A stretch of 64,000 bases of DNA from an uncultured Gammaproteobacteria bacterium (GTDB lineage: Bacteria; Patescibacteriota; Microgenomatia; Levybacterales; UBA12049): the NCBI GenBank assembly GCA_964637955.1, contig CAZWXQ010000005.1, positions 18,993 to 82,992 on the forward strand. Direction: 5' to 3'. Position 1 is the first letter of the stretch, and the number at the start of each line of letters is the position of its first letter. Both the position numbers and the translations under genes were made by a program. Of this stretch, positions 11,062 through 61,912 are shown one piece after another. The notes below the pieces were generated by a model. That model was not told the origin of the DNA and made no database searches. It saw nothing but the letters and a program-made list of their open reading frames with translations.

Positions 11062-13212
11062 ATGAGTCCGGAAATAGCACTAGATATTGATAGATCAACT
11101 GAACTAAATCAAGTTCGTGATCTTGTAAATAAAAAGCTAACGGATGCTCTTGTACCACCTGAAAAACTTCTAAATGGTGATATAAGATTTCAATCAGTTC
11201 TTTACATGAGCTATTGGCACCAAAGACTTCACAATAATACACTAGAACAAAATAGAATTAAGACTCATTTGGAAGAATATTTGGGAACTGCAGTTCCTGA
11301 TTCAACTATAGCTGCAGGAAATTTGTTGTCTAGCCCTGATCTTTCAGAAGCATCCAAGTCGTTTGTTGAAACACTTATGACTCCAACCAAAACTGTGGAT
11401 CTAGTGATTACAAGACAAAGTCCAGATAATGAAAATGAAACGGAAGTATTAAGTCTTGAAAGAGGATATTATCCTTTTGGCTCTGCGCTTCCTGGAGGAA
11501 TAATAAAAGATAGCGATGAAAGTAATGATTTAGATATCCCTCAAAATGTTTTCGCTGCACTAAGGGTTGCTGGAGATAAAGTACTAGGCCTAGGTGATGA
11601 AGCACAGTACTCAATTAGAACAAATGAAAGTGGCAAAACTTATTATGAAGTCTATTCTGAAAACGATTCTGCATCAGTAAGAATTCATCCTGAAGACGAA
11701 GGTGGTTATACATACAGAGAAAATATTAAATCTACTATACGTCCTGCTGACCCAAGACACATAGTGGACACAGTAGCATTTCGATCTGAGCTAATAGGAG
11801 AGCCTAAGACTAATCTTAAGTGGATAAAGAAGTCTGAGATCATGTCAGTAAATGAAACTACTGGCGGATTTGCGTTTGGACACCATAGAGAAATTGTTGC
11901 TCATATCACAAGTCAATCGTCGGTCGAAAAAGAAAGAGAAATGAGCGAACGTGAATTTGTAAGATCAATCATAAATAATCCTCTCGATGCATATAAAGCT
12001 CTTAAAGAAAGATTTGATAAAGATGGTGGAAGCTCCGAAACTTCTTTTCCTGAACTATTTCCTGCTGTAGATAAAATACTTTTAGATTTATTCAAGCATG
12101 AAATCAATCAAATGTGTGAAGATATTCCTCTTCTTGCAGGAATTAGAGACAAAGCAGTAATTTCACTTAGACAAGTCTCTCTTAAAAATAGAACTTTTAT
12201 GCCATATCTACCTACACTTTTAGCTATCACTGAAGGAATTACTTTTTTTGATGTAGTTTCTAGACAAAAAAAAGGATTTTACGATGAAATGCCAAAAGAT
12301 AGAATAGTCGAACATAATCCAGCCGAAACTCAGTATGCTCAGTACCATATGTATAGATACAAATACAGATTTAATGAAATGCTAAGTATGCTTCCAGGAG
12401 AAATTGTAATTCCTACATTCGAACCTCTGTCTGCAACAGATTTGATGAAAGTCAGAGGAGTTCCGGTAAGATTTGTCGGACTTGAGGAAGATTTTGTTTA
12501 TGTTGATGAATTCGAGCAATCTCCCGAAGAATTCTTAATGCATGATGTCAATCATTCCTGGAGAATGATCATGGAAGACAGAAAATATATGGAGGAGAGC
12601 GGAATGAGTAGAGACCAATTTGTTGAAGAGTCAACAAGATTCTCCAAGGTATATTTAGATCATATAAAGATACTAAAGTCAGATACCGAAGAAGAAAGAG
12701 AAATTAAAAAATTAAAGAAGATAATCTTATTCGAAGTAGTACATGAAGATGCACGACCATTTTTGCGAGACGTAATCACTAGATTTATACAAATGCAGGA
12801 AGGTAAACCGGTTCCATTTGAAGTTCCAAGAATCGACAAGGAAACTGGTTACATGGATGTTGTTGATACTTTAGATACTGGAATAAGTACTCTTTCTTAT
12901 GTCAGAAATAAACTTCAACATGGATTTTATGATCATATTGATGCTCAGCTCCCTCAAATAGTTGATCCAAAATACAGAACTGCGGCATGGATTTCATGGG
13001 CAGCGTATGAAATGCTTGTTGAATTAGGAGCTGACCCTGTGCAAGAAGCAGAGTTAGATGCACATGGAAATGTTTCATTTGAGTGGCTCATGAAAAGAAC
13101 ATGTGCAGTCGGACCAGACAATATTCATGATGAAATATCAGAAGATCCTGACTTAGCAGTTTATGGCGATGGAGCAGATAAACTAAACCCTAAAAGATAT
13201 CAGGCAACTTGA
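11062..13212 (+). CDS. large hypothetical protein (716 aa), no recognisable domain
   Basis: Uninterrupted ORF, acidic, no motif recognised. Confidence 0.45.
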   Translation: MSPEIALDIDRSTELNQVRDLVNKKLTDALVPPEKLLNGDIRFQSVLYMSYWHQRLHNNTLEQNRIKTHLEEYLGTAVPDSTIAAGNLLSSPDLSEASKSFVETLMTPTKTVDLVITRQSPDNENETEVLSLERGYYPFGSALPGGIIKDSDESNDLDIPQNVFAALRVAGDKVLGLGDEAQYSIRTNESGKTYYEVYSENDSASVRIHPEDEGGYTYRENIKSTIRPADPRHIVDTVAFRSELIGEPKTNLKWIKKSEIMSVNETTGGFAFGHHREIVAHITSQSSVEKEREMSEREFVRSIINNPLDAYKALKERFDKDGGSSETSFPELFPAVDKILLDLFKHEINQMCEDIPLLAGIRDKAVISLRQVSLKNRTFMPYLPTLLAITEGITFFDVVSRQKKGFYDEMPKDRIVEHNPAETQYAQYHMYRYKYRFNEMLSMLPGEIVIPTFEPLSATDLMKVRGVPVRFVGLEEDFVYVDEFEQSPEEFLMHDVNHSWRMIMEDRKYMEESGMSRDQFVEESTRFSKVYLDHIKILKSDTEEEREIKKLKKIILFEVVHEDARPFLRDVITRFIQMQEGKPVPFEVPRIDKETGYMDVVDTLDTGISTLSYVRNKLQHGFYDHIDAQLPQIVDPKYRTAAWISWAAYEMLVELGADPVQEAELDAHGNVSFEWLMKRTCAVGPDNIHDEISEDPDLAVYGDGADKLNPKRYQAT

Positions 13213-13991: not shown

Positions 13992-15374
13992 ATGACAAAG
14001 CAATTACAAAGCAATGCATCAGAATTTTTATTTGCAAGAAAAAAACTTAAATCTCCTGCAATAATTAATTTACTGTTATCTACTTCATTTGGGCTAAATG
14101 CCATATTTTATGCTGCATGGCTAGGCTATTCAATTGGAATTTGGGCACTTTTGATTCAATTAGCATGGTCTATTAGTTTTTTTCTTTTAATTCCTAAATC
14201 AAAATATTTTAGTAAAGTTAATAGCTTGCATGATTTATTGGGTCAAAAATTTGATAATAAAACAAAATTAATAGCTTCAATTTGTAGTCTAATCGGACTA
14301 AATTACTTAATAGCTTGGGAAGTAAGCATAGATAAATCAGTAATAGCACCACTGCTTCCAAATACTTCATTACCTCCAGAGATCTTTGCAGGAATGATAA
14401 TTGGATTCTTTGTAATAGTTGCCATATTTTATACTATTAATTTTGGCATAAAAGGCAATGCAAATGCAGATAAATTCTTAAACGCGTTAAAAATGGTTAT
14501 CTTCATAGCTATTTGTTCAATTGCAATTTATGAATTTCTTAAATTACCACGAGAAATGATTATCTCATCGGTGTTTCCGCCAATTAGTAAGATCGTGATA
14601 AATCTAGGAATCATCGGATTTATGACAAATATCTTATTTAACTTAAGTTGGCAATTCGTAGACAATTCTTCATGGCAAAGTATCATAAGCGGATCGAAAT
14701 CAAAATCAAACGCTAGCGCAATAAACTTAAAGCAAAGTGGAATAATTATATTTTTTACAGTAAATTTATTTGCTACAATTCTTGGAATTACACTCGCACA
14801 TTTCAGTAATTTAACTCCTGACAGTTTATTCTCAGCAACTGCTGGAATCATACCTCAATTTGAAAGTATAGTTTCGCTAGGAATAATCATGCTCAGCATT
14901 GCCTCAATGATGTCACTTGCGGATGGAATGATTTTAACTTCAGCGCTTACCATAAATGTAGATCTTTTTAAGTATTTTAAATTTGCTAAAAATTACGACG
15001 AAAAGATAAAAATGAAATTTATAAAAATATCAGTAGTTATTTTTGGATTAATAAGCGTTTGGGGAATTAGCTTCATATTTAACATTCTCAATATTAATTT
15101 ATTTGAATTTATTTACATAATAATTATTACTCAACTTGCTTTAATTGGACCTGTTATTTTTGCTCTATATTCAAAAGATTCGAAAGGGGCGAATATGTGG
15201 AAAGCAATTATAATCGCCTTATTTGTAGGATTTGGGTCTGTACTAGTAGGAACAGTTTCTGAAAATAAAGTATTTATAGATGCTGCTGGAACAGTTACTA
15301 TTTTTAGTTCAGTATTTACCGCTTGGGTTATTGTAAAACTGAAATGTTTTAATTTAAAACTTAATCTAAGGTAG
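13992..15374 (+). CDS. polytopic membrane protein, probable secondary transporter (11-12 TM)
   Basis: 460 aa highly hydrophobic with regularly spaced TM helices; family not assignable from sequence alone. Confidence 0.45.
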   Translation: MTKQLQSNASEFLFARKKLKSPAIINLLLSTSFGLNAIFYAAWLGYSIGIWALLIQLAWSISFFLLIPKSKYFSKVNSLHDLLGQKFDNKTKLIASICSLIGLNYLIAWEVSIDKSVIAPLLPNTSLPPEIFAGMIIGFFVIVAIFYTINFGIKGNANADKFLNALKMVIFIAICSIAIYEFLKLPREMIISSVFPPISKIVINLGIIGFMTNILFNLSWQFVDNSSWQSIISGSKSKSNASAINLKQSGIIIFFTVNLFATILGITLAHFSNLTPDSLFSATAGIIPQFESIVSLGIIMLSIASMMSLADGMILTSALTINVDLFKYFKFAKNYDEKIKMKFIKISVVIFGLISVWGISFIFNILNINLFEFIYIIIITQLALIGPVIFALYSKDSKGANMWKAIIIALFVGFGSVLVGTVSENKVFIDAAGTVTIFSSVFTAWVIVKLKCFNLKLNLR

Positions 15375-17320: not shown

Positions 17321-20158
17321 ATGAGTGAAATACCAAATCCAGGCATTGCGGAATTTAAGGGAATAGAAAGAATTGCTGAATATGACAGAACAGGCAACAG
17401 CATTTATCTGGATCCTCAAGTTTTTAGCGAAATACGCCCATATAGACCGAGAGTCAGAGGAGTAACATATGAAGTTAATGCCTCAATTAGTGGAGTCTTA
17501 AGAGAAAGTCCCATCGTTGAATGGATTCAAGCAAATCCTGAAGGATTCATGTCGCATGCAGGAAGAGATGTGCATATAAGAAGAGCTCTAGCTACAATTG
17601 ATGATCTGACAGTATCGCTTCAGACAGGAGACCAAGATTCGCAAGATTTATATATGCAATCTCTTGCTGTGGGAGAAAAAATCTCTGAGCTGGATATTCT
17701 TGCAAGACCGTATATACCAAAATCATTATCAACACCTGAACCTGAAGATGAGATGGCTGAATCTCCTATTTCAACAGAAGTTATTTTGCCTAGCATTCAG
17801 ATGAAACGAAACTTTGATTGGAAAAGTGCGCTGATTAAATTATTTAGTAAACTTCCTGAAGGAGCGACTATACCTATCAAACCTATCAAAACTCCGAACA
17901 TTCCACGAATTCCTATTAGAACGCCTCAAGCGCCACAAGAACGTATAGATGATTCCGCCTCGCGAAAAAGAAGAAGAGTGAGGGAGATTGATGATTCCGA
18001 CCTTCCTTCAAGATCCTTTCTTCTCGACGATTTTTACATTGCAGGTAGGGAAAAACTTACTAACCCAAGAGGAAGAGGAAATACTGTTGTTAGAGTAAAA
18101 AATAGCAGAAGACCAATCGCCACAAATGGATTTGTAGTAACTAAAGTTTACAACAGATATGATCCCGAATCAGGACTCATGACGACAGATTCGGAAAAAA
18201 CTCGAATTAGATATTATGACATTGTGCATATAGATTCCACGAGCATCAGCGCCAATATAGGTGTTATTGATCCAATGAAATTTAAAACTATCGGTATACC
18301 TTTTTATGTTACTGACACAGATAATAGGACGTTTGAGCCTGACATAAAAGATAAACTTATAAATTTACAGATTGTAGGAAAAGACGGAGTCATAGTTGAA
18401 AAATATGATCTAGTAGAATATGTAGATGTAGATGGGCTTGGAAATTTAAGCCTATCACTTGAAGACATGCCTGATGAAGTAAGAAGAAAATTAACAGGTC
18501 AAAGTCTTACCATAAATGCTTTTTATAAAACCGGTTTCAATGAACGTACAAAAGTTCATCAGTCAGAACTTCTTGGTCCATTCTCCGAAGATGAAGATTT
18601 CAGATTAAATCTTTACCCCGAAGACATAGCAAATCTTATTAGAAGACTAAGAGAAGTTATAAAAGACGGAAGCGAAAGAGATCCATTTTCAATCCTCACT
18701 CAATATTTATCAGTGTGGGCTCTTGAATACGATATTAAAGATGCAGCAATAAGCAAGGATGATCCTGTGTCTTTTAATCAGACTGAAAGAGTTCTCGAAA
18801 GAAAATTAGCTTCATGTGAAGGTGCAAATATTGCGCTTGGACAATTAATGAGACATCTTATAAAGCCTGGTGAAGGAATTGCATTTGTGACAGGGTATCA
18901 ATTGGGTACAGGCGGCACTGCAGATGATATGAGTGGACATATGATGGTGATGTATGTAGATAAAAAAGGAAACAAAACTTATCTCGATGCTACTCCCTGG
19001 CTTCCCGAACAACGCAAAAGAGTTGAAAATGAAAGAAGAGCCGCTGTGCGAGCAAAAGAAGTCTGGTATAGAAGCACAAAGTATTTGAGAGAAAACCCCA
19101 ATTTTTTGAAAGAATTTAGATCCCTTAAAGAAAGAGCGCGTAATGCAACAACTAGATTATCTGACTCCTGGAACATAGGTGACTTGACCTATGAACTAGA
19201 ACAGGAATTGAGAGATTTTGGAATATATATAGCAAAGTTTAAACAAGAACCAGCTGTTTATTTTGAAGAACCTAAATTGATAGTTCCCCAACCAGATCCT
19301 AATGATCCAAAAGGTGCCGAAAGAACCCGTGAAAGAATTGGTCTTATTCCCGTTATAAGAAAGCATTTTAAAGTACCAGAAAGGATGAAAGCTTTTTGGC
19401 CTGAGAGCTATGATTATATTGATGGCACATTAGAAATCAAAATCCCTAATTATTATCGTGATTTTTATAGAGGATTTTATTACTCCAAGCCAAAAGATCC
19501 TAGCGCTTATTATATGGGAGACTCACCGGCGTCCAGCGAGGCAAGAGCAAGACGTGATTTGCTCTATAATGGCCGTATTCAAAGAAAAACTATTTCCGCA
19601 ATGACAAGAGTACTAGAGGCTTCTACGTATGCTTCTGCTCAAAATATTCAAGCATATGAAACTCTTGCAACTTTAGTCGAAGCGGAATATGAAAGACAAA
19701 AAAGAGCATTAATAGCATGTTTTGAATCAATTCCCGGAGGATTAGGGCAGGATTTGGACAACTTCTGGAACCAGATGCCTTTTATAAGACTTATTGATTC
19801 ACCGTTTCCTCATTTAACAGACTTTTTCACTAGGTCAATAGATTCAAGTTCTCTTGGACATCTTGTAACTTCATCCGGAAACATAGAGGAAGATTTTAAT
19901 TTAAGAATTTCAGAATGGAGAACTGAGATGGATAAGAGAATTGCATCATTTTATGAATTTATTCAATATGCTCCTAGAAAATCAAAAAGTCCAACAGTGG
20001 TAGAAGTTCCAAGTACATTTTTATGGAGGCAAATGAAAGATGTTAGACCAACTGAGCCTGAAGAAAGACCTGATATTGTTGATCCATTGGGTACGTTTGC
20101 GCTTCTGGCAAGACATATGGATGACTATAAATATCCCCATACGAGAATTAATAGATAA
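17321..20158 (+). CDS. large hypothetical protein (945 aa) with central transglutaminase-like cysteine-protease core
   Basis: Cys-His-Asp arrangement CEGANIALGQLMRHL...GIAFVTGY...GHMMVMYVDKKGNKTYLDATPW resembles TGc domain (C..FA.....G......HAW.EVY....W..DPT). Confidence 0.5.
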   Translation: MSEIPNPGIAEFKGIERIAEYDRTGNSIYLDPQVFSEIRPYRPRVRGVTYEVNASISGVLRESPIVEWIQANPEGFMSHAGRDVHIRRALATIDDLTVSLQTGDQDSQDLYMQSLAVGEKISELDILARPYIPKSLSTPEPEDEMAESPISTEVILPSIQMKRNFDWKSALIKLFSKLPEGATIPIKPIKTPNIPRIPIRTPQAPQERIDDSASRKRRRVREIDDSDLPSRSFLLDDFYIAGREKLTNPRGRGNTVVRVKNSRRPIATNGFVVTKVYNRYDPESGLMTTDSEKTRIRYYDIVHIDSTSISANIGVIDPMKFKTIGIPFYVTDTDNRTFEPDIKDKLINLQIVGKDGVIVEKYDLVEYVDVDGLGNLSLSLEDMPDEVRRKLTGQSLTINAFYKTGFNERTKVHQSELLGPFSEDEDFRLNLYPEDIANLIRRLREVIKDGSERDPFSILTQYLSVWALEYDIKDAAISKDDPVSFNQTERVLERKLASCEGANIALGQLMRHLIKPGEGIAFVTGYQLGTGGTADDMSGHMMVMYVDKKGNKTYLDATPWLPEQRKRVENERRAAVRAKEVWYRSTKYLRENPNFLKEFRSLKERARNATTRLSDSWNIGDLTYELEQELRDFGIYIAKFKQEPAVYFEEPKLIVPQPDPNDPKGAERTRERIGLIPVIRKHFKVPERMKAFWPESYDYIDGTLEIKIPNYYRDFYRGFYYSKPKDPSAYYMGDSPASSEARARRDLLYNGRIQRKTISAMTRVLEASTYASAQNIQAYETLATLVEAEYERQKRALIACFESIPGGLGQDLDNFWNQMPFIRLIDSPFPHLTDFFTRSIDSSSLGHLVTSSGNIEEDFNLRISEWRTEMDKRIASFYEFIQYAPRKSKSPTVVEVPSTFLWRQMKDVRPTEPEERPDIVDPLGTFALLARHMDDYKYPHTRINR

Positions 20159-31042: not shown

Positions 31043-32617
31043 ATGAAGAAAGTAAAAATGCTTATACTACAAAACAAACTTCTTATTCTCCTGCTTCTTA
31101 CTTACTCGTTTTTATTTACATTTTTTATTTATTTCTACTATCAAAGGCTGGGGGCTTTTGGGTGCTTCGATGACTGTTTTTATTATATGGGTGGATATTT
31201 TCTTCTCAAAGGAGAAAGAATTTATACTGACTTTTTCTTTAACCACAGTTTTTTAGTGCCAGTTATTAGTTTTCTAATCCAAAAAATCACTCACCCCACA
31301 GAACTTTATACCTTTATCCTTTTTCATAAACTTTTTATATATTTATTTTCATTTTTATTTGGATTAATCCTAATCTTTAGATTCAAAACTCAAGCATTTC
31401 TAACATTAATTTTTTACGAATTAACTAAATTTTTTACATTCGGAGATAGATTCCTCGGAGAAAGCCTAGTAGTTTATCCTGTGCTATATTTACTTGGAAT
31501 TTCCTGGGAAAAAATCCATGCAAAGAAACTTCATAGATTTGACTACTTGTTGTCAGGAATTTTTGTTTACTTTATTATATTCGCAAGAGAACCTTACGTA
31601 CCGTTAGCTTTATTCTTATTTCTAGTAATTCTCTGGGGCAAAAAAGACATTAAGCTTAAAAAATATGCTGTGATAAGCTTCCTTACTCCAGCAATTGTTT
31701 CATTCATTTTAATTTCGCCAAAAGATTTTTTTACTAACGTTTTTACACTTAACAAATCACAAATTGAAACAGAATCATCAAAAAATGGCGGAATCCTAGG
31801 AGTACTCATATATCCCCTGAGAATTTATATTGAAGGCTTTTGGAATCTTTTCAGGCAAATCACCATCTTTTTTATGTCAGCTTTTTTAATTTCAGGTATT
31901 TATTACTCTTTGAAGTTAAGAAGATTGGGGTTTATTATTTTACTTATTGCGCTGAGCCTTGCTGCAGTAAGACCAGAGATTCCTGGCACTATTTTTTACA
32001 AGGCATATCACATGAATATTTGGTATGCAGTCCTATTATTTTCTACATTTTTAGTTATTTTTGAAATATTAAAATTAAAAGCTACTAAATTCAAAATCGT
32101 AATATTATTGCCATTTTTTCTTTTATTTGCATATATATTTACTTCTCCAAACCTGATTATTAATGAAAAAATAAACAAGATTGAAGAATATAATTTTGGC
32201 TATTCTGGATATTATGTTTATGGAAATGCTATTAAAAATTTATCTAGCGACAATGACACGATATTCGTAGAAGAAAAGGATGAATTAATTAATGTACTCT
32301 CAAATCTAAAATCTTCTTATAAATATAATGGATATACCTCTTTTATGCCTTTGATTGATGTGTATAGAGATGAAAGACTTAATATGTTTAAGAATGCTCC
32401 TCCAGATTTTTACTATGACGCCTGCTATCAACTTGATAAAACACACAGAGCTTATACTCCAAACATTGAAAAAAACTTTACAAGAATATATATATTCAAT
32501 AAACCATCCTGTTTACTTATTAACAACAAAAAAATTAACAATATAACTGATGAGAAATGGAAGAAAATTAAAAACTTAGGCTTTCAAAAGCCTGAAAAAA
32601 CTAAACAGCAATATTAA
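31043..32617 (+). CDS. large polytopic membrane protein, possibly GT-C-type glycosyltransferase
   Basis: 524 aa, about 12 TM, extracellular C-terminal domain; family tentative. Confidence 0.35.
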   Translation: MKKVKMLILQNKLLILLLLTYSFLFTFFIYFYYQRLGAFGCFDDCFYYMGGYFLLKGERIYTDFFFNHSFLVPVISFLIQKITHPTELYTFILFHKLFIYLFSFLFGLILIFRFKTQAFLTLIFYELTKFFTFGDRFLGESLVVYPVLYLLGISWEKIHAKKLHRFDYLLSGIFVYFIIFAREPYVPLALFLFLVILWGKKDIKLKKYAVISFLTPAIVSFILISPKDFFTNVFTLNKSQIETESSKNGGILGVLIYPLRIYIEGFWNLFRQITIFFMSAFLISGIYYSLKLRRLGFIILLIALSLAAVRPEIPGTIFYKAYHMNIWYAVLLFSTFLVIFEILKLKATKFKIVILLPFFLLFAYIFTSPNLIINEKINKIEEYNFGYSGYYVYGNAIKNLSSDNDTIFVEEKDELINVLSNLKSSYKYNGYTSFMPLIDVYRDERLNMFKNAPPDFYYDACYQLDKTHRAYTPNIEKNFTRIYIFNKPSCLLINNKKINNITDEKWKKIKNLGFQKPEKTKQQY

Positions 32618-52682: not shown

Positions 52683-53834
52683 ATGCCAGCAAACGAAACA
52701 GAGCCTATAAATCAGAGTATATTTCCATTTAATGCTATCGAAACACAAAGCGTTCTAGATGAGCTTAACTTTAGTAAAAATTCAAGCGCAAATGATCTGT
52801 GTGAAAGTGAAATTGACTTACTCCTAGCTCAAAATCCTGAAATACATTTCGTAGTTGAGGATGCAATGGCGTATTTTAACAGACCTGAAGATCCTGAGCT
52901 CCAGTCACATCTTCATAATCAATTTCTTTGGGGGAATATAGTCACATATAGATTAATAAGACAAAAGTTGGAGTCAAGTGGGCAATCAATGCCACAATTT
53001 AGCCTAGACTATATAATTGAACATGCCAAAAGATTTGATGAGATTCTAAGAAGCTCAGCGTCTTATGTTGGCCAAGAGGAAATACACTTGCTTGAAAGAA
53101 ATAGAGAAGTATTGGCTTTTGAAAAAGCAGAAGAAGTCTTAGCTAATTTGACTGCAAATGCCATGGAAATTGAGCAAGGAGAATTGAGAGAAAGTTCACC
53201 AGGATATATGGGAATGGTTTTTCAATACCATTTACTTAAAGAGGGCCTTAGAAGATCTGATACAAAAAGAAGAAGTTCTTCTCCAATTCCATGGCTTACA
53301 TCTGAAGAATTTCGAAGGGAAGCAGTTTTTAACAAACACTTGGCAATTATTGAAAAACTTGATGGTTTTTTCTCAAGCGGAACCCATGCAAGATATCCTT
53401 TAGTCAGTTTAGGTCGAAAAGTAGATCTCACAGACGCCTCAATTAATGCTAGCGCAAAAAACCGAAATGTATTAGCTCTATATATTGATGGATATTCTGG
53501 AGAAAATACAAATTTATCGCTTCAAACCTTCCCAGTTTTAGATGAAAAATCCACTAGCTACCTTTTAAAGAAAACACCAGAAGAAATCCTCCCAACCAAG
53601 AAAAGACAACGTGATACAAATGGTGATCAAAGATTAGTAAAAAGAATCTCAGAAGGAGACCTTCCGCTAGTATTAGCTGTGTTAGATTTAGACAAGGGGC
53701 AAGAAGCAATGCAACTTTTTCATTCTCCATCAATAAAACCTAGAGACGCAATCAACTTTATACAAACTGGAGTAATTAGCTCAAGACAAGGAAACGTAGA
53801 GGTAGTAAGATATGAAAATGGCCAATTAAATTAA
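52683..53834 (+). CDS. hypothetical protein (383 aa)
   Basis: Long ORF; no motif recognised. Confidence 0.4.
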   Translation: MPANETEPINQSIFPFNAIETQSVLDELNFSKNSSANDLCESEIDLLLAQNPEIHFVVEDAMAYFNRPEDPELQSHLHNQFLWGNIVTYRLIRQKLESSGQSMPQFSLDYIIEHAKRFDEILRSSASYVGQEEIHLLERNREVLAFEKAEEVLANLTANAMEIEQGELRESSPGYMGMVFQYHLLKEGLRRSDTKRRSSSPIPWLTSEEFRREAVFNKHLAIIEKLDGFFSSGTHARYPLVSLGRKVDLTDASINASAKNRNVLALYIDGYSGENTNLSLQTFPVLDEKSTSYLLKKTPEEILPTKKRQRDTNGDQRLVKRISEGDLPLVLAVLDLDKGQEAMQLFHSPSIKPRDAINFIQTGVISSRQGNVEVVRYENGQLN

Positions 53835-55083: not shown

Positions 55084-55377
55084 TTAATCTCTGCATGCTT
55101 CAAAAACAATTTTTTCCTGTCTTTTATTTCTTATTCCATCAACCAGATCATATATTCCAATGCCTGCTATGAGAACAGTGGTGGCTCCAATATTTCTTAA
55201 ATCTGCACTTGATAGAATATGTCCCGCATAAGCAGTACCAATCCCTGCAACAAGAGTAGCCGGCGAAAGTTTTGTATTTATACGAGATAATCTGCCAGGC
55301 TCTTTTTTTATTTTTGGAAATAAAATACAGTGTTCATAATTTTCATCAATAATTTCAATTTTTTGAATTTCAATCAT
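55084..55377 (-). CDS. small membrane protein (97 aa)
   Basis: Two hydrophobic segments. Confidence 0.3.
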   Translation of the reverse strand: MIEIQKIEIIDENYEHCILFPKIKKEPGRLSRINTKLSPATLVAGIGTAYAGHILSSADLRNIGATTVLIAGIGIYDLVDGIRNKRQEKIVFEACRD

Positions 55378-55473
55378 TCATATATGATAAGTTTTAAGAC
55401 AAAGAGGTGCTTTACATTATTCCGACCCGAAGAAGACATAATCCTGAAATCTAGAACTTTCAATAATTACCTC

Positions 55474-55521
55474 TTGACAAATTTACAAAAAGTAGTATAG
55501 TTAGTGTCATATGTACACTAA
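55474..55521 (+). promoter_or_regulatory. promoter TTGACA-N16-TATAGT plus 21-bp palindromic operator TTAGTGT-N7-ACACTAA overlapping the nrtR start codon
   Basis: ttgacaaatttacaaaaagtagtatagttagtgtcatatgtacactaa; ATG (55511) lies in the centre of the inverted repeat, 10 nt after the -10. Confidence 0.45.
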
Positions 55522-56203
55522 ACTACCTGAGACAAAGATAAGAAACCTCAAAGAAATAGAAAAACCTGCAGTATCAATTACAGTTCTTATTTTTTCCATT
55601 AACAAAGGGAAACTTGAAATTGTTTTAGTTAAAAGAGTACGAGATCCTTTCCTTGGTTTATTAAGTATTCCAGGAGACATTATTTCAATCGATGATGATT
55701 TAGAAGCAGCAGCTAGGAAAATTCTAAAAGATAAAACTGGAATTCATGATGTTTATCTGGAGCAGCTTTACACTTTTGGAAATGTTAATAGAGATCCTCG
55801 AGGAAGAGTTATTTCTATCGCATACTTCGCATTTCTTCCACACAACAGCGTTGACTTATCACTTGCTCCTGATTCACTGCATGCTTCCTTTATCCCTATT
55901 GAAGATCTTCCGAAACTTGCTTTTGATCATAATGAAATAGTTAATTATGGAGTCGAAAGAATTAAGGGAAAAATTGAGTATAGCAATATAGCACAAGGCC
56001 TTCTTCCTGAAAAGTTTAGACTATCTGAACTACAAGCAGTTTATGAAATAATTTTAGGTAAAAAATTAGATAAAAGAAATTTTAGAAAAAAGATGAATGC
56101 AGTGAACTTACTTGAATCTACGAATGAACTTTACAGAGAAGGAAGTCACAGACCAGCAACACTTTATAAATTTAAAAGCAAAGATTTAGTAATGTTTAAT
56201 TAA
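55511..56203 (+). CDS. nrtR: NrtR-type regulator: Nudix-like N-terminal domain + C-terminal winged-helix DNA-binding domain
   Basis: Nudix fold (VLIFSINKGKLEIVLVKRVRDPFLGLLSIPGDIIS....RKILKDKTG) followed by NrtR-type HTH (FRLSELQAVYEIILGKKLDKRNFRKKM). Confidence 0.6.
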   Translation: MYTKLPETKIRNLKEIEKPAVSITVLIFSINKGKLEIVLVKRVRDPFLGLLSIPGDIISIDDDLEAAARKILKDKTGIHDVYLEQLYTFGNVNRDPRGRVISIAYFAFLPHNSVDLSLAPDSLHASFIPIEDLPKLAFDHNEIVNYGVERIKGKIEYSNIAQGLLPEKFRLSELQAVYEIILGKKLDKRNFRKKMNAVNLLESTNELYREGSHRPATLYKFKSKDLVMFN

Positions 56204-56243
56204 TATTTTTTTACACTTTAGTTAGTGTAGGAATTACACTATT

Positions 56244-57761
56244 ATGAATGGAGAATTATTTAGAGGAGTTGAAATAAATGCACTGCCAGATAGGGAAAGG
56301 CAATTTTCTGAAAGATATCTGGGATTTCCAGAAGATCTAACATTTAATGAATTTAGATTAATTAATCCCGAAATTAGAAAACAAATAATTCTTAGGAATC
56401 CTATTATTCAATCTGACACTTATAACAGAACCATGGAACATCTCGCTGGCGAAGACTTAAATAAAGAAGGTGTCTATGTTCTCCAATTAAGAAAAGCTAA
56501 GTCAGGTTTTCTTATTGCGACAGGAATTCAGGATGTAGTTAATGAAATTGCAAATGTAAAAATTACACAAGCTCAATTAGATTTTGCTAAAGATTATTAC
56601 GCACAATCTTCAGGAGTGCCATATTTTAATCCAGAAAAATGGGAGACTGTAATTAGAGACCACGGAGGAAAACTTCCATTTGAAATTTACGGAGTTAAAG
56701 AAGGAACTTCTGTTCTTCCTGGGGATCCTATTCTTAGAGTACACGGTCCAAATGAACTAGTTGCGCATTTTGAACCGTATTTTCATCGAATTTTTTATCC
56801 AACTCTTGTTGCAACAAACGCAAGAAGAATTGCAGAAATTATAGATCCCAGCAGATTTATAGAGGTTGGCCTAAGAGGAGTTGAAAACAATGACAAACAT
56901 CTAATCGCAGTAAAAGCGATGTATATAGGTGGAGGAATTAGAAATACTAGCAGCGATATGGCAAATGCATATTATCCTCAATTTAATCTTATAGGTACCA
57001 TAGGGCACAGATATATTCAATCTTTTGTGAATGAGGAAGAAGCATTTAGACATGCCGTAGAAAACCTGCCAGCAGTAACTCTTTTAGTTGATTTAAACGA
57101 CAGTTATGAAGGCATCGAAAAAGCATTAAGAATAAAAAGAGAATATAGAAATTCAGGTAAAAAAATCTGGATGAGACTTGATTCGGGAGATCTTTTGGCA
57201 GAGTGTGTTTACGCCCTAAGAAGACAAGAAGAGCTTGGATTAAAAGACCCAGAACTAGACAAAATTGTTATTGAAGGAATTGAAAGCATAGAACAACTTG
57301 AAGATATAGAATCAAAATTAAAAATGCTCGATCTTCCAGCTGAAGACTATGTAATCTATGGCGCAGGTGGACTTTTGGTTTCAGAGAATACAGCTAGATG
57401 CGATGCTTCAAGCGGATTTAAGCTCGCAAAATATGATGGCCGTCCCACAGCTAAATTTACAAATAGCTCAGGCAAAAGCTCTATTCCAGGAGTTCCTTTT
57501 CTTGGAGAACTAAAAGGAGAGAGAATCATTTCTCAATCTGGTGAACATGTAAGACGCTCACTTTTCCAACCATATTATATTGATAAAAAAGTGGTTCAGC
57601 CAGAAAGCATTGAGATTGCCAGAATTAATGCAGGGCTGACATACGAGGAAATTGCAGAACAAGCAAAAAATAACCAAAGAACTCAAAAATCTTACCAAAC
57701 AAGCACGCTCCTTTATGACTTAAGACCTAAGAGTAAAACAAAGGAGACAGTTTTATTATGA
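56244..57761 (+). CDS. nicotinate/nicotinamide phosphoribosyltransferase family protein (NAPRTase/NAMPT-like)
   Basis: IIQSDTYNRTM (D-x-Y-K-like), LIGTIGHRYIQSF (GTxxH), WMRLDSGDL; 505 aa. Confidence 0.65.
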   Translation: MNGELFRGVEINALPDRERQFSERYLGFPEDLTFNEFRLINPEIRKQIILRNPIIQSDTYNRTMEHLAGEDLNKEGVYVLQLRKAKSGFLIATGIQDVVNEIANVKITQAQLDFAKDYYAQSSGVPYFNPEKWETVIRDHGGKLPFEIYGVKEGTSVLPGDPILRVHGPNELVAHFEPYFHRIFYPTLVATNARRIAEIIDPSRFIEVGLRGVENNDKHLIAVKAMYIGGGIRNTSSDMANAYYPQFNLIGTIGHRYIQSFVNEEEAFRHAVENLPAVTLLVDLNDSYEGIEKALRIKREYRNSGKKIWMRLDSGDLLAECVYALRRQEELGLKDPELDKIVIEGIESIEQLEDIESKLKMLDLPAEDYVIYGAGGLLVSENTARCDASSGFKLAKYDGRPTAKFTNSSGKSSIPGVPFLGELKGERIISQSGEHVRRSLFQPYYIDKKVVQPESIEIARINAGLTYEEIAEQAKNNQRTQKSYQTSTLLYDLRPKSKTKETVLL

Positions 57762-58657
57762 ATGAGGAAACTAAAATTCAGACTTTAAGTCTTGTAGCGG
57801 GCACAGAGGCTTGCAACGCCAGATGCCCATTCTGCGTATCTAAAATGACTCCTCTTCAAGGAGTGACTCTTAAAGAAGAACCCATCGACTGGGACAGATT
57901 CAAAGTTGCTATGACGCTAGCAAAAGAAGGGAACACAGAGACAGCAATGATTACCGGAAAAGGCGAACCAACACTTTTTCCAGGACATATCACTGGATAT
58001 TTAGATAATTTAAGAAGCGAAGAGAACGCTCAAGGTTTCCAAATCCCAAAAAAAGAACTTCAAACTAATGCTATAGTTTTCGACAGAAAAAGAGCCCAAT
58101 ATGATCCGCTACTTGAAAGATGGGCAGAACTTGAACTAGAAACTGTCGCTATTTCTATAGTTCACTATGAACCAGAAAGAAATCGAGAAATTTATTTACC
58201 TTATTCAAATTCATATATTAACCTTGAAAGCGTACTCGAATATCTGCATGGAATGGGAATTCGCACAAGACTCGCATGTGTTTTGGTTAACGGTTACATA
58301 GATTCAAGTGATAAAATTGCACGTCTTATCGATTTTGCAAGAAATAATAACTCTGAAGAGCTCACCATAAGACCTGTTAATAAACCAGATTTAGCACAAG
58401 GAGATGTTTATGAATGGACTGCCGCACATCACTTAACTCGTCCTCAATTTGAAGATATTCACACTTTTCTTGAAAAAAATGGCAGCATCCAAAGGGAGTT
58501 TCCATTCGGTGCTACAGTTTATGACATGGGAGGACAAAATGTTTGCCTAACAAATTCTCTAACAAAAGATACCAATTCGCATTATAAGCGTCAATTAATA
58601 TTTTTTCCAAACGGAAGAATTGCGACTGATTGGACGGAAGGATCTCAAGCGCTATGA
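57758..58657 (+). CDS. radical SAM enzyme (299 aa)
   Basis: CNARCPFC (CxxxCxxC) cluster motif and ITGKGEPTLFP SAM-binding glycine-rich motif; ATGA overlap with upstream gene. Confidence 0.65.
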   Translation: MNEETKIQTLSLVAGTEACNARCPFCVSKMTPLQGVTLKEEPIDWDRFKVAMTLAKEGNTETAMITGKGEPTLFPGHITGYLDNLRSEENAQGFQIPKKELQTNAIVFDRKRAQYDPLLERWAELELETVAISIVHYEPERNREIYLPYSNSYINLESVLEYLHGMGIRTRLACVLVNGYIDSSDKIARLIDFARNNNSEELTIRPVNKPDLAQGDVYEWTAAHHLTRPQFEDIHTFLEKNGSIQREFPFGATVYDMGGQNVCLTNSLTKDTNSHYKRQLIFFPNGRIATDWTEGSQAL

Positions 58658-59709
58658 ATGAATTTGATCCCATGAAAGCAGTTTATAGTTACTATTTTCC
58701 TGAAACCCGTGCCGTTGTTGATTCACTTGCACTTACACCCCACGATATCTTTCTAACACAAACAAATATTGCTCAAGCAAATGAAGCTATTTCTCAGTAT
58801 GGATTTAAAAACGGATTTGAAATTCCAAAAACTCCAGCTGGAAATGTGGATCTTGATATGATTCATGAACCAATCATAGAAGCGATTATTGATGAATATA
58901 AAGATGTTGTACCAAATCTCTCTGAATATCCATTCAGATATCCAACATCAGGATCTTCTGAAGGAATTTTCCATTATCTTTCATTTTTAAGATCCCAAAA
59001 CATCACGACGATTAATACTTTTCCAGGGGAATATGAAGGATATAGAGAATACGGAATTGGCATAGGAATTAATACCGTTGAAGTTCCAATTGAAAAATCA
59101 GCTGAAAGTAGAAATGAATTTTGGTTTATTTCAAACCCAAATGCCCGAAATGGAAATATTATCGATAACGCTACTATAAATTCAATTGCTGAGGCGGGAA
59201 ATGACATTGCACTTGACTTAGCATATGTTGGAAATACCAATCCGCAAGAATTTGATGTCTCAAATCCTAGAGTCAAAGCTGTATTTATGTCTTTTAGTAA
59301 ACCGTATGGGCTTTTTAGATTTAGAATAGGATTTACATTTACTAGGGAGCCAATTCCTACTCTTTATGCAAACAAATGGTTTAAAAGTGTTCCATCTCTT
59401 TTGTTAGCTTTAAAAGTAGCTCAGGATATTGGACCAAAACTTTTACCTGAGAAATATAAAGCAGTTCAGGCGGAAATCGTAGCCGAAATAAATGATCAAA
59501 CAGGACTCAACATTACTCCAAGCGATGCATTTCTCTTAGCTCATATGCCTCTATCGGACTCGATGAGATTAAATAACGACCAAAAAAACTTGATCGAACA
59601 ATTCCAAAGAGCTGACAATTATAGATTTTGCCTCACTCCTTATTTTGAAAGAAAAGAAAAAGAATTATGGCTGCAAAATGGCACTCAGATTTTTTCTCCA
59701 CCAACCTAA
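58654..59709 (+). CDS. class I/II aminotransferase-fold PLP-dependent protein (HisC/CobD-like, divergent)
   Basis: TSGSSEG, FWFISNPNARNGNI (PNNPTG-like), DLAYVGN, MSFSKPYGLFRFRIGF (SFSKxxGLxGxRxG with PLP lysine); ATGA overlap with radical SAM gene. Confidence 0.55.
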   Translation: MNEFDPMKAVYSYYFPETRAVVDSLALTPHDIFLTQTNIAQANEAISQYGFKNGFEIPKTPAGNVDLDMIHEPIIEAIIDEYKDVVPNLSEYPFRYPTSGSSEGIFHYLSFLRSQNITTINTFPGEYEGYREYGIGIGINTVEVPIEKSAESRNEFWFISNPNARNGNIIDNATINSIAEAGNDIALDLAYVGNTNPQEFDVSNPRVKAVFMSFSKPYGLFRFRIGFTFTREPIPTLYANKWFKSVPSLLLALKVAQDIGPKLLPEKYKAVQAEIVAEINDQTGLNITPSDAFLLAHMPLSDSMRLNNDQKNLIEQFQRADNYRFCLTPYFERKEKELWLQNGTQIFSPPT

Positions 59710-61389
59710 TACAGGATTACTTTCTACTTGCCAATTTTTTGCCATTTCTTCGTATTCAGAAATCTTGGGAATGGATGCCGATCTGTTATATAATCCTGAT
59801 ACATATTTTGGATCTAACCATTGAAGTAGACCAACTTTTTTAAATTCCCATTTTTCATCATAGGGATAAACCTTACCATCAATATAAACCATTTCAGTAG
59901 TACCGTTTTCTTTTTGAACCCTGTACCAGTTAAAAGGATTCGTATCAAGCTGCCATCTTTTTCCGAGCTCAAAAGTATTTATGTATTTTGCCATTTGTTC
60001 TACATCTACTTCAGATAATAATCCGTCTTTAATAAGTTGCGCTGCAGATAACGAACCTTCAGGAATTTGCTCCTGTACAAAGTATCTATATGGAGGCCCT
60101 CCTGGATCAATTTCTAAAATTTTCGCATGAGGAACACCGTTTTCATCAAGCAAATTTTCCCTTTCAATTGATTGCTGCATTGCTTTAAAAATATTGTGAT
60201 CATTCTTGCCATCTTTTCTAACAACTTTTAGTACTTTTTCTCCCTCTTCAAGAACAAAAACCATTTTTTTACTTCCAAATGCTACTTCATGGCTAGGAGA
60301 TATTTTGAATTCTTGGTCACCAATCTTAACAACCCTTCTTTCTTCATCAAAATTTATGCTCGATTTAATTTCCTCATAATTAACGCTTGATATTTCAGGA
60401 TCAGTAATTAACTTTCTAGCTTCAGGTTTAACCCCCACAACAACCATATGAGTTGTAGGAAAGGGAAGAGGTATAAAATTTCCATCTTCATCTTCCTTGG
60501 ATAATTCTACTTTTCCTTCTAGTCTATTCTTTAATATAAATTCATTTGGATCAGGAATAACCTGAATATCTATGAATCCAGCATCTTCAAGCACTTTTCT
60601 TGCTTGCTCTTGAGTCCAATAAGTATATTTCTCATGAATTTCCTGCCTCCAATTTCCTGTATAGTCTTTTCTCATATAAAACTCGTGTGCCCACTCAGGA
60701 AGAATATTTATATATTCATGTCCATTTCGCTTAAAAAAATGATAATTAAAAGCATTTCCACCGCCAAATTCCTCATGAAATCTTAAAAACAAAGCTCTTG
60801 GGGAAAGCTTATTGTAGTCAATAATGCCATCATGAGTCGCTTTTTCTACATCATCTTCACCGACCTGCGTGAGTAATCTCATGTTAATTGGCGTGGTGTC
60901 AGTAGGCTTTGCAAAATCCCTTACGATAATTCTACCTCCGGGTTTTAACTCTCTAAATGTAGCTTCGACAGCATCAGTCATTCTCCCAGCTCCACCAAAC
61001 GATTCAATTTCATGTCCACTAGTGGAATAAAATTTGATATCAACTGAATCATCTGGAAATACTTGCTCTGACGCGTCACCATAAACAAGTTGCGTAAGCG
61101 ATTGATTCTCCGTTGCTCTTTCTGCAAGTTCATGAGAAAAATCTAATGCATAAACATTTGCTCCTCTAAATTCTCTAGCTATAGCTTCTGCCATTAATCC
61201 CGTCCCTGAACCTGCGTCAACTATACGAGCACCATCTGGAACTTCACCGAAATAAGGAACGACGGAACGTAATTTTGCTTCCAAAGCAACGTCCATACGC
61301 CAATCATAAACCGTAAAATCACGCCCTTCATTTGCTAAATCAAATCTTCTTTTAATTTCTGACGGATCAGGCGCAGGAACTTCAATCAT
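59665..61389 (-). CDS. class I SAM-dependent methyltransferase fused to about 380-aa C-terminal domain of unknown function
   Basis: RIVDAGSGTGLMAEAIARE....NVYALDFS (motif I/II), RIIVRDF; start taken at MIEVPAPD (61389); 45-nt convergent overlap with 58654..59709. Confidence 0.55.
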   Translation of the reverse strand: MIEVPAPDPSEIKRRFDLANEGRDFTVYDWRMDVALEAKLRSVVPYFGEVPDGARIVDAGSGTGLMAEAIAREFRGANVYALDFSHELAERATENQSLTQLVYGDASEQVFPDDSVDIKFYSTSGHEIESFGGAGRMTDAVEATFRELKPGGRIIVRDFAKPTDTTPINMRLLTQVGEDDVEKATHDGIIDYNKLSPRALFLRFHEEFGGGNAFNYHFFKRNGHEYINILPEWAHEFYMRKDYTGNWRQEIHEKYTYWTQEQARKVLEDAGFIDIQVIPDPNEFILKNRLEGKVELSKEDEDGNFIPLPFPTTHMVVVGVKPEARKLITDPEISSVNYEEIKSSINFDEERRVVKIGDQEFKISPSHEVAFGSKKMVFVLEEGEKVLKVVRKDGKNDHNIFKAMQQSIERENLLDENGVPHAKILEIDPGGPPYRYFVQEQIPEGSLSAAQLIKDGLLSEVDVEQMAKYINTFELGKRWQLDTNPFNWYRVQKENGTTEMVYIDGKVYPYDEKWEFKKVGLLQWLDPKYVSGLYNRSASIPKISEYEEMAKNWQVESNPVLGWWRKNLSAILQP

Positions 61390-61492
61390 AAGATGCCATT
61401 TTACTTCTTTTGTGCCTAAATAGCAAACTATAGGGTGAACATAAAACTCACAAGTAACTAGATTTAAAAACAATTGCTATAATTATATCGTT

Positions 61493-61912
61493 ATGGAAAA
61501 AAACAAGAGAAACCCTAGACAAGAATTATTTAGAGAAATGGTTTTGGGAACTCTGGTTTACTCAGTAGTTTTGGGATTCTTTAATGATTATACACAGATT
61601 ATTCACACTGGAACTTATTCGACTACGTTTTTAGTAGCAGTAGTAATGCAAATCCTAACCTACATTACTTTTTGGTTAAAAGGCATAGTAGTTAAAAAGT
61701 TCAAAGGGAAAGAAGATTCTAAATATAAATTTGCTTTAGTTTTTGGTGTTTGGATAATTATGTTTTTATCTAAATTTGTTTTTCTGGCAGTAATCGATTT
61801 TGTTTTTGGCGGAAATGTAAAAATAAGCGGATTTATCGGACTTGTAATTATAATCGTAATTATGACTTTATCTAAAAAAATGATTGATATTCTTTACGAA
61901 AAACTAGCTTAA
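61493..61912 (+). CDS. small membrane protein (139 aa, 4 TM)
   Basis: Hydrophobic profile only. Confidence 0.4.
   Translation: MEKNKRNPRQELFREMVLGTLVYSVVLGFFNDYTQIIHTGTYSTTFLVAVVMQILTYITFWLKGIVVKKFKGKEDSKYKFALVFGVWIIMFLSKFVFLAVIDFVFGGNVKISGFIGLVIIIVIMTLSKKMIDILYEKLA

Follow-up and report, generated by a model that had tools for sequence, protein, structure and literature searches.

The operon and its NrtR-type regulator

Four genes that run in the same direction occupy positions 55511–59709 of the 64-kb stretch of contig CAZWXQ010000005.1 (GenBank assembly GCA_964637955.1) analysed in this study, which is referred to below as the window. As given by the listing of open reading frames (ORFs), they are nrtR, which encodes a regulator of the NrtR type, and the genes for a 505-aa phosphoribosyltransferase (PRTase), a 299-aa radical S-adenosylmethionine (SAM) enzyme (rSAM) and a 351-aa pyridoxal 5'-phosphate (PLP) enzyme (Table 1). 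Together they form an NrtR-controlled operon of nicotinamide adenine dinucleotide (NAD) metabolism, which is of a known kind and carries an uncharacterised rSAM–PLP module. To our knowledge, the biosynthesis and salvage of NAD are held to be essentially fully mapped, the textbook routes contain neither a radical SAM enzyme nor a dedicated PLP enzyme, and none of the known NAD pathways includes a radical SAM step.

The four genes, the sizes of the PRTase and of rSAM, the motifs CNARCPFC, GKGEPTLFP and SFSK and the ATGA stop/start overlaps had been listed in a preliminary description of this DNA, and all of them are present in the sequence. The overlaps were read directly at 57758–57761 and 58654–58657, and the rSAM gene is translationally coupled to both of its neighbours, the PRTase and PLP genes; a Shine–Dalgarno sequence, AAAGGAG, lies 11 nt ahead of the rSAM start. 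The start of the PLP gene at ATG 58654 is backed by homologues; the mechanical ORF opens at TTG 58630. The promoter TTGACA-16-TATAGT and the palindrome over the nrtR start codon, which had also been described, were confirmed, and a second operator that had not been listed was added. The promoter matches at 11 of 12 positions and is the top promoter-like site within 55300–61700. Operator 1 covers the last base of the −10 element plus the start codon of nrtR, a placement whose geometry would suit auto-repression of this gene, and the nrtR mRNA is probably leaderless or near-leaderless because the −10 element ends just 9 nt before the nrtR ATG.

The earlier assignment of the regulator to the NrtR type was borne out by its domains, with Pfam matches to NrtR_WHD (9e-26; 90 bits against a cutoff of 27) and NUDIX (1e-9), and by the two 21-bp GT-N7-AC operators, so that the domain pair of the family is accompanied by operators upstream of both its own gene and NAD genes. 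The match to the NCBIfam model NtrR (NF050029; 9e-48, 163 bits) lies below the cutoff of 400. Solved relatives are AraR from B. thetaiotaomicron (5BS6; 3e-45) and NrtR from Shewanella (3GZ5; 3e-31 over residues 19–223). The Nudix box is degenerate, with RKILKD in place of REUXEE, which marks the protein as a sensor and not as a hydrolase.

As published, the NrtR motif consists of a 21-bp palindrome around a GT-N7-AC core (Rodionov et al., 2008; PMC2330246), and the fit of the two operators to this architecture indicates that the operon belongs to an NAD regulon. These operators are the sole matches with at most two mismatches in the window, where 0.27 are expected by chance; at least two matches were found in three of 100 shuffles. 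The features shared with described NrtR regulons (Rodionov et al., 2008, PMC2330246; 3GZ5) are a Nudix plus winged-helix regulator, a 21-bp GT-N7-AC operator, auto-regulation and NAD-salvage targets, which are the PRTase here and PncA, NadE, NadD/M and NadA in relatives. The operon differs from them by the inclusion of rSAM and the PLP enzyme and by the presence of NrtR and its operator in contigs of DPANN archaea as well. The 2008 description of NrtR regulons uses the word 'radical' 0 times and does not mention an rSAM or PLP enzyme (PMC2330246), and full-text literature searches, the coverage of which is incomplete so that absence is not proof, gave no description of either family in NAD metabolism.

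Table 1. Positions of the operon features and of the convergent gene in the window
Feature	Position	Strand	Description
Sigma-70-type promoter	55474..55501	+	−35 TTGACA 55474–55479, 16-nt spacer, −10 TATAGT 55496–55501
NrtR operator 1	55501..55521	.	Perfect 21-bp palindrome TTAGTGTCATATGTACACTAA, TTAGTGT-N7-ACACTAA, 0 mismatches
nrtR	55511..56203	+	230 aa; Nudix-fold plus C-terminal winged-helix domain
NrtR operator 2	56222..56242	.	TTAGTGTAGGAATTACACTAT, 1 mismatch; 3' end 2 nt short of the PRTase ATG
PRTase (PRT505 clade)	56244..57761	+	505 aa; divergent type II phosphoribosyltransferase
rSAM	57758..58657	+	299 aa; CNARCPFC and GKGEPTLFP
PLP-fold protein	58654..59709	+	351 aa; SFSK motif; fold-type I, class I/II aminotransferase-like
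Methyltransferase fusion	59665..61473	−	602 aa as longest ORF; convergent; class I SAM-methyltransferase plus ~250-aa C-terminal region

The PRTase and the rSAM–PLP unit

The three enzymes were compared across related loci, which are labelled by L-numbers and were viewed over ±10 kb. A homologue scan with one genome per species gave 80 rSAM loci, and a non-redundant set of 82 was used for all counts; neighbouring ORFs were clustered, the clusters were named by Pfam, family hidden Markov models (HMMs) were built and every locus was re-annotated.

The PRTase belongs to a small clade, here called PRT505, of ~65 close sequences, beyond which identity falls sharply to canonical nicotinate phosphoribosyltransferases (NAPRTases) at 27–31%. 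Type II PRTase motifs are invariant in 26 members (G251, T252, G254, H255 and R256; E207, G209 and R211; R311-L-D-S-G315), and the catalytic motifs, consisting of the phosphohistidine motif GT-x-(G/A)-H, E-x-G-x-R and the R-x-DSGD motif for phosphoribosyl pyrophosphate (PRPP), align to those of E. faecalis NAPRTase 2F7F. The family profile aligns full-length to 2F7F (5e-29), and nicotinamide phosphoribosyltransferase (NAMPT) is matched mainly at the N-terminal domain. Matches to Pfam NAMPT_N and NAPRTase_N are weak, and the N-terminal domain scores better as NAMPT_N. The type II fold and these motifs are thus shared with PncB/NAPRT (2F7F; human NAPRT 4YUB) and NAMPT/NadV, as are the PncB-like partners PncA, NadE and NadD; PRT505 differs from the NAPRTases as a separate clade that matches NCBIfam NAPRTase at 1e-42 and falls below the cutoff of all ten NAPRTase models (TIGR01513, 146.7 bits against 297.4).

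The gene context of PRT505 resembles that of PncB. It adjoins the nicotinamidase PncA in ~21 of its 25 loci and NadE, usually just downstream of PncA, in 15, a partnership of nicotinamidase and NAD synthetase that is accompanied by interchangeability with PncB: PRT505 lies within 10 kb of rSAM in 25/82 loci, PncB in 7/82 and both in none. Furthermore, PRT505 occurs without rSAM and the PLP protein in L092 and L093, where it is found with NadM and NadE or alone. Since PRT505 occurs without the rSAM–PLP pair and is swapped for PncB in seven loci, it appears to perform an ordinary salvage NAPRTase step that is not dedicated to the product of rSAM. The PRTase is therefore best regarded as a putative nicotinate phosphoribosyltransferase, which would convert nicotinate and PRPP to nicotinate mononucleotide (NaMN).

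The rSAM protein matches only the generic Pfam family Radical_SAM (PF04055; 1e-8), and it has the CX3CX2C motif (C19, C23 and C26), the GGE-type SAM motif (GKGEP) and the partial TIM barrel of the radical SAM superfamily. In 27 homologues all cluster- and SAM-binding motifs are invariant, together with numerous Lys, Arg and His residues. Just one further Cys, C263, is conserved, which points to an enzyme without an auxiliary cluster; a conserved C-terminal Cys cluster of the SPASM/twitch type is absent, and the NCBIfam maturase models score at most 16 bits. PLP is not bound within the radical SAM barrel protein, as it is in enzymes of the lysine 2,3-aminomutase type. The structure models of rSAM and the PLP protein are confident, with predicted local distance difference test (pLDDT) values of 86.6 and 92.0, respectively. 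The nearest folds to that of rSAM are MoaA and viperin at 10–17% identity, and the lipid enzyme Tes scores equally high; the likeness to all three is one of fold only. With MoaA (GTP 3',8-cyclase) and viperin/pVip it shares a partial TIM barrel of ~290–330 aa, a near-N-terminal CX3CX2C motif and a basic active-site lining, whereas it lacks the C-terminal cysteines for the second [4Fe-4S] cluster and the GG tail of MoaA, falls far below the HMM cutoffs of both and occurs with NAD genes and a dedicated PLP partner rather than in a molybdopterin or defence context. An exhaustive profile search over 1.84 billion representatives yielded 402 proteins with E ≤ 1e-30 and 1802 with E ≤ 1e-3, with ~400 clusters at 50% identity (E ≤ 1e-30); judged by these numbers, the family is real but small. 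One member, P0473 (438 aa), has a cupin-like N-terminal domain fused to rSAM.

The PLP protein matches Pfam Aminotran_1_2 at 0.0018, below cutoff, and its top matches are HisC and CobD (E 1e-6 to 1e-8; 12–19% identity). The residues expected of class I/II fold-type I PLP enzymes (Schiff-base Lys, pyridine-N Asp, Asn/Tyr, Ser/Arg and carboxylate Arg) are in place as the invariant class-I aminotransferase set N161, D188, Y191, S213, S215, K216, R224 and R324. With the HisC/CobD subgroup it shares a length of ~340–350 aa, fold-type I, the Asn/Asp/Tyr/Ser-x-Ser-Lys/Arg set and the C-terminal substrate Arg; it differs in having no his or cob genes in its loci and in being always paired with or fused to rSAM. 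The possibility of an NAD-using PLP enzyme of the SbzP type was considered, and searches of the PDB gave no specific similarity.

Neither family has a specific model in NCBIfam (June 2026), Pfam, PADLOC or PHROGs. In keeping with the preliminary description, both proteins fall outside the housekeeping families that they resemble, with 31.9 bits against a cutoff of 284 for MoaA (TIGR02666), 27.9 against 276.6 for HisC (TIGR01141) and 25.2 against 290.6 for CobD (TIGR01140), and on these comparisons neither belongs to a characterised family. At the level of their motifs, all three enzymes of the operon appear to be catalytically competent.

The PLP gene adjoins the rSAM gene in 28/82 species-level loci, mostly with a stop codon that overlaps the next start codon, and this adjacency holds even at loci without any other NAD gene. 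A natural rSAM–PLP fusion of 666 aa (P0373/P0509; locus L108, 6090–8090) is present in two independent assemblies; it lies in a non-NAD context, beside a response regulator. The fixed functional unit is therefore rSAM plus the PLP protein rather than the trio with the PRTase that had been proposed earlier. The trio is co-conserved in ~13 species-level CPR (candidate phyla radiation) and DPANN loci, and this part of the proposal stands; a single obligate module of PRTase, rSAM and PLP protein was ruled out, since PRT505 occurs without the pair (L092, L093), PncB takes its place elsewhere and the pair occurs without PRT505.

Linkage to NAD genes and NrtR boxes across genomes

Homologues of rSAM at ~50% identity were found mainly in DPANN archaea and Patescibacteria, the nearest locus being in a Candidatus Levybacteria genome (67% identity). 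Further lineages are Nano-, Woese-, Aenigmat- and Micrarchaeota, Saccharibacteria, Parcubacteria and Obscuribacterales, as well as Chloroflexota, Acidobacteriota, Planctomycetota and Polyangiaceae. At least one NAD gene lies within 10 kb of rSAM in 58/82 loci, from CPR bacteria, DPANN archaea, Obscuribacterales and Polyangiaceae. In addition to the PRTases and the PLP partner, the neighbours comprise PncA (29/82 loci), NrtR (28/82), NadE (25/82), NadA and NadM (14/82 each) and NadD and NadK (10/82 each). Among the commonest is also a divergent NAD-kinase-like protein of ~295–320 aa with a weak match to PF01513, which is present in 26/82 loci, including most DPANN clusters, and is encoded immediately upstream of rSAM in Obscuribacterales (L054–L062, L065–L071).

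Independent contigs annotated with Pfam show this pattern as well. One of them has NrtR-PRTase-PncA-rSAM-PLP with the same convergent methyltransferase as in the window, a nanoarchaeon contig has PncB-?-NadE-NadA-rSAM-PLP-NadD-...-PnuC-NadR, an aenigmarchaeon contig has PncA-NadM/Nudix-?-PRTase-rSAM-PLP and a patescibacterium contig has NadK, NadE, NrtR-rSAM-PncA-PncB-Ndt-NadA-NadD. In Polyangiaceae rSAM is divergently adjacent to PRT505-NrtR-PncA, and in Obscuribacterales NadR, a NadD fusion and the NAD-kinase-like gene precede it.

The NrtR box recurs together with these genes. In the relatives L003 and L010 the operator 1 box is in the same position, and a counterpart of operator 2 also lies ahead of their PRTase gene. 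Across 1.28 Mb of the 82 related loci there are 73 copies with at most two mismatches, compared with 4.4 ± 1.7 in block shuffles, and the majority of the boxes that have a downstream gene start precede NAD-gene families. A box lies ahead of a same-strand gene run that holds rSAM in 29/82 loci; it is immediately before rSAM in L025, L027, L041 and L074 and immediately before PLP-rSAM in L063 and L085. NrtR and the identical TTAGTGT-N7-ACACTAA operator were found in the archaeal loci L011–L018, L025, L028, L029, L050, L061, L072, L074 and L082, and the same regulator and operator motif in the bacterial loci L003, L008, L010, L023 and L024. That DPANN archaea and CPR bacteria have both in common implies inter-domain transfer of the whole regulon. 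The rSAM–PLP pair very probably belongs to the NAD regulon and has a role related to NAD; as a component of NAD regulons it is previously undescribed.

Several other boxes were observed. In L063 (5928–5982) and L085 (7931–7985), the same loci in which a box precedes PLP-rSAM, a pair of methionine sulfoxide reductase genes, msrB-msrA, is also preceded by paired NrtR-type boxes. The Anaerolineales locus L039 (8444–12548) has two perfect NrtR boxes followed by a HemN-like radical SAM protein (485 aa), the rSAM described here, the PLP protein and a third radical SAM protein (262 aa); the two extra radical SAM proteins were in no other locus when tblastn was run against the loci, and they were not used as evidence.

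These neighbourhoods bear on two readings in which the link to NAD would be accidental. In one, the pair would be a housekeeping rSAM resembling MoaA and an aminotransferase resembling HisC, or else a small cluster for a secondary metabolite, brought together by chance or selfish clustering. This is highly improbable: although certain databases label rSAM as 'MoaA', HisC and CobD are the best matches of the PLP protein and ~24/82 loci have no NAD gene nearby, the MoaA, HisC and CobD equivalog cutoffs are missed widely, molybdopterin, histidine and cobalamin genes are not nearby, and the association with NAD genes and NrtR boxes is seen repeatedly, both in archaea and in several phyla of bacteria. 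Genes for polyketide synthases, nonribosomal peptide synthetases, ribosomally synthesized and post-translationally modified peptides or transporters do not accompany the pair, and the suggestion of a secondary-metabolite pathway found no backing in neighbours that are NAD genes, not biosynthetic-cluster genes.

In the other, an antiviral pVip-type defence gene would lie in the NAD operon by chance, which is just as improbable. Viperin is among the top structural neighbours of rSAM, and the PADLOC pVip matches are weak (2e-5 at 22 bits; also 7e-4); however, the match to NF038283 amounts to 17.3 bits against a cutoff of 180 (viperin_w_prok, E 0.002), the neighbours in the 58 loci are NAD genes and not defence islands or nucleotide kinases, rSAM lies under NrtR operators and has a PLP partner and a fusion to it, and its homologues are themselves borne by phage-like contigs. 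The antiviral role raised in the preliminary description was thus abandoned.

The viral members of the family are full-length (29–42% identity) and lie on contigs L094–L107, several of which are 300–460 kb long. In L094, L096, L098 and L103, for which ORFs were listed, rSAM is found amid phage-like ORFs that are short and hypothetical; L103 also has a second rSAM gene a few hundred bp upstream of the first, and no ORF separates the two. The PLP partner is absent within 8 kb in 13 of the 14 contigs; L100 resembles a cellular NAD cluster.

The convergent methyltransferase gene is probably not part of the same transcript as the operon. Its 45-nt overlap with the PLP gene, noted previously, is present here but is peculiar to this genome, since a 3-nt gap in L003 shows that it is not a conserved feature; the protein likely starts at an internal Met because its homologues have 580 aa. 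The ~250-aa C-terminal region has no Pfam or PDB match. The fusion recurs by NAD clusters of CPR bacteria as well as of DPANN archaea (L003 7584–9326, L010 ~4974, L013 ~6815, L016 ~17854 and L029 ~14363) and near PRT505 without rSAM in L093 (18683–21115), and it is possibly a further gene of NAD clusters that has no assigned function. Five loci also share a separate small methyltransferase of the MTS type.

The window is AT-rich (34.5% GC) and contains two tRNAs with no further Rfam match, and ordinary cellular genes, for BipA, a ketoacyl synthase, a solute-binding protein and an HlyD-like protein, are also present. Long ORFs of 383–945 aa without a Pfam match at E ≤ 1e-5 lie at 17321–20158, 11062–13212, 31043–32617, 13992–15374 and 52683–53834; such ORFs are typical of CPR genomes. 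The phmmer queries NadA, NadD, NadE, NadK, PncA, PncB, PnuC, NadR and Ndt, which have limited single-sequence sensitivity, matched only nrtR in the window.

Proposed role and alternatives

The explanation that is favoured here, with a probability of roughly 0.5, is that a CPR bacterium here keeps an operon for NAD supply under repression by NrtR, in which the PRTase acts as a NAPRTase and the rSAM–PLP pair feeds in a pyridine precursor. NrtR, as a catalytically dead Nudix sensor, would bind the two operators and repress the operon, and by analogy with characterised NrtRs it would be released upon the build-up of an NAD-breakdown signal such as ADP-ribose. The 505-aa PRTase would take the place of PncB in forming NaMN. 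The rSAM enzyme would use a 5'-deoxyadenosyl radical for the oxygen-independent oxidation or rearrangement of an anionic (carboxylate- or phosphate-bearing) substrate, and its PLP partner would make or process the α-amino or α-keto acid function of the same molecule. Together they would supply or reclaim a pyridine precursor at the nicotinate/quinolinate level for the PRTase–NadD–NadE route. Co-repression with NAD synthesis and salvage genes favours a supplying step over a consuming step. That the pair serves pyridine-precursor supply specifically is nevertheless a tentative proposal, and somewhat more doubtful is that it performs a hitherto unknown oxygen-independent reaction of NAD metabolism, most strikingly a new route to nicotinate, quinolinate or the substrate of NadA.

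A number of observations weigh against this explanation. No characterised homologue fixes the reaction of the pair, so that its substrate, product and direction, whether supply or modification, are inferred. The Preiss–Handler route is complete without rSAM and the PLP protein, and hence no known missing step obviously needs them. The specificity of the PRTase for nicotinate rather than nicotinamide is drawn from gene context. The best solved relative of NrtR is the arabinose sensor AraR and not an ADP-ribose sensor, so that ADP-ribose is a candidate effector. A PLP gene does not adjoin rSAM in about half of the family (Saccharibacteria, Parcubacteria, Obscuribacterales and Polyangiaceae), which makes rSAM the core enzyme of the pair, with the PLP protein as its accessory. 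Together with the ~24/82 loci without NAD genes and the 14 viral (IMG/VR) contigs that carry rSAM, 13 of which have no NAD genes within 8 kb, this means that the function of rSAM may exceed NAD supply. Finally, MoaA and viperin, the closest folds, act on nucleoside triphosphates, and a nucleotide-modifying role fits these folds equally well. A pathway of pyridine-nucleotide modification or consumption, as raised in the preliminary description, is conceivable.

In such a role, a viperin/MoaA-like rSAM would abstract a ribose H atom from NaMN, NAD(P) or ADP-ribose and the PLP enzyme would transaminate the keto intermediate, leading to a modified cofactor or to repair or recycling. The many invariant Lys, Arg and His residues of rSAM suit a phosphate-rich substrate, rSAM sits with the late genes for NadR, the NadD fusion and the NAD-kinase-like protein in Obscuribacterales, and it stands alone on phage-like contigs. 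Radical SAM enzymes are also paired with aminotransferases in sugar-nucleotide pathways, as in DesI/DesII and NikJ/NikK. However, chemistry at the nucleotide level is unlikely overall: the low identity to MoaA and viperin is matched by a score as high for Tes, the C-terminal cluster of MoaA is missing, and co-repression with NAD-supply genes would be an odd logic for NAD consumption. Furthermore, the PLP protein is not of the DegT/DesI class and keeps R324, which binds an α-carboxylate and so makes an amino or keto acid a likelier substrate than a keto-sugar. We know of no modified NAD that would need rSAM–PLP chemistry.

The 14 loci with NadA (L008, L012, L014, L015, L016, L023–L025, L029, L033, L034, L046, L058 and L068) suggest a further alternative, in which rSAM, with the PLP protein where present, replaces the L-aspartate oxidase NadB and provides iminoaspartate or a decarboxylated equivalent to NadA without O2, the product being taken by the NAPRTase-type enzyme. 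A parallel is the replacement of ThiO by ThiH in thiamin synthesis, where the flavin oxidase has its anaerobic counterpart in a radical SAM enzyme. NadA-rSAM-PLP-NadD are translationally coupled in L005, NadA and rSAM are directly adjacent in L068 and L015, PncB or PRT505 is present in every NadA locus except L015, and Saccharibacteria clusters have NadA and rSAM without NadB, NadC or a PLP gene. When E. coli NadC and NadB were used as queries against all loci, one NadC (L046) and one NadB (L088) were found, with no NadB among the NadA loci, a tally that appears too sparse to decide the matter. A DAO/Mqo-like FAD oxidase adjoins NadA in L025, L033 and L046 and is in the same locus in L034; this fits the replacement, yet the coexistence of rSAM with the NadA-adjacent oxidase in the first three loci, and with NadC in L046, speaks against it. 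The otherwise complete NAD clusters L011, L013, L017, L018, L019, L022, L028 and L072 have no NadA within 10 kb, NadA was not detected by phmmer in the present window, and rSAM is without the auxiliary cluster that is usual in radical SAM dehydrogenases. Replacement of NadB is accordingly a still less likely role than nucleotide-level chemistry.

The supply of a pyridine precursor by rSAM and the PLP protein would have known counterparts in its general design, since the ThiH/ThiO and DesII/DesI systems share the two-enzyme logic of radical and PLP chemistry, co-regulation with a cofactor pathway and anaerobic hosts with reduced genomes. If the pair supplies or reclaims such a precursor, this would be a new enzymatic step in a central cofactor pathway; as a new NAD-pathway reaction it would constitute categorically new enzymology and bring a radical SAM enzyme into an NAD pathway for the first time, and it might explain the gaps at NadB and NadC beside NadA, with a NAPRTase-type enzyme kept, in CPR bacteria and DPANN archaea. 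The two small genes would then be a concrete target for cloning. Even if the role is nucleotide modification or repair, an unassigned radical SAM family gains an unusually clear functional lead. The pair is especially frequent in ultra-small symbionts, which retain few biosynthetic genes and are informative through those that they keep, and the whole regulon, including NrtR and its operator, spans the divide between bacteria and archaea.

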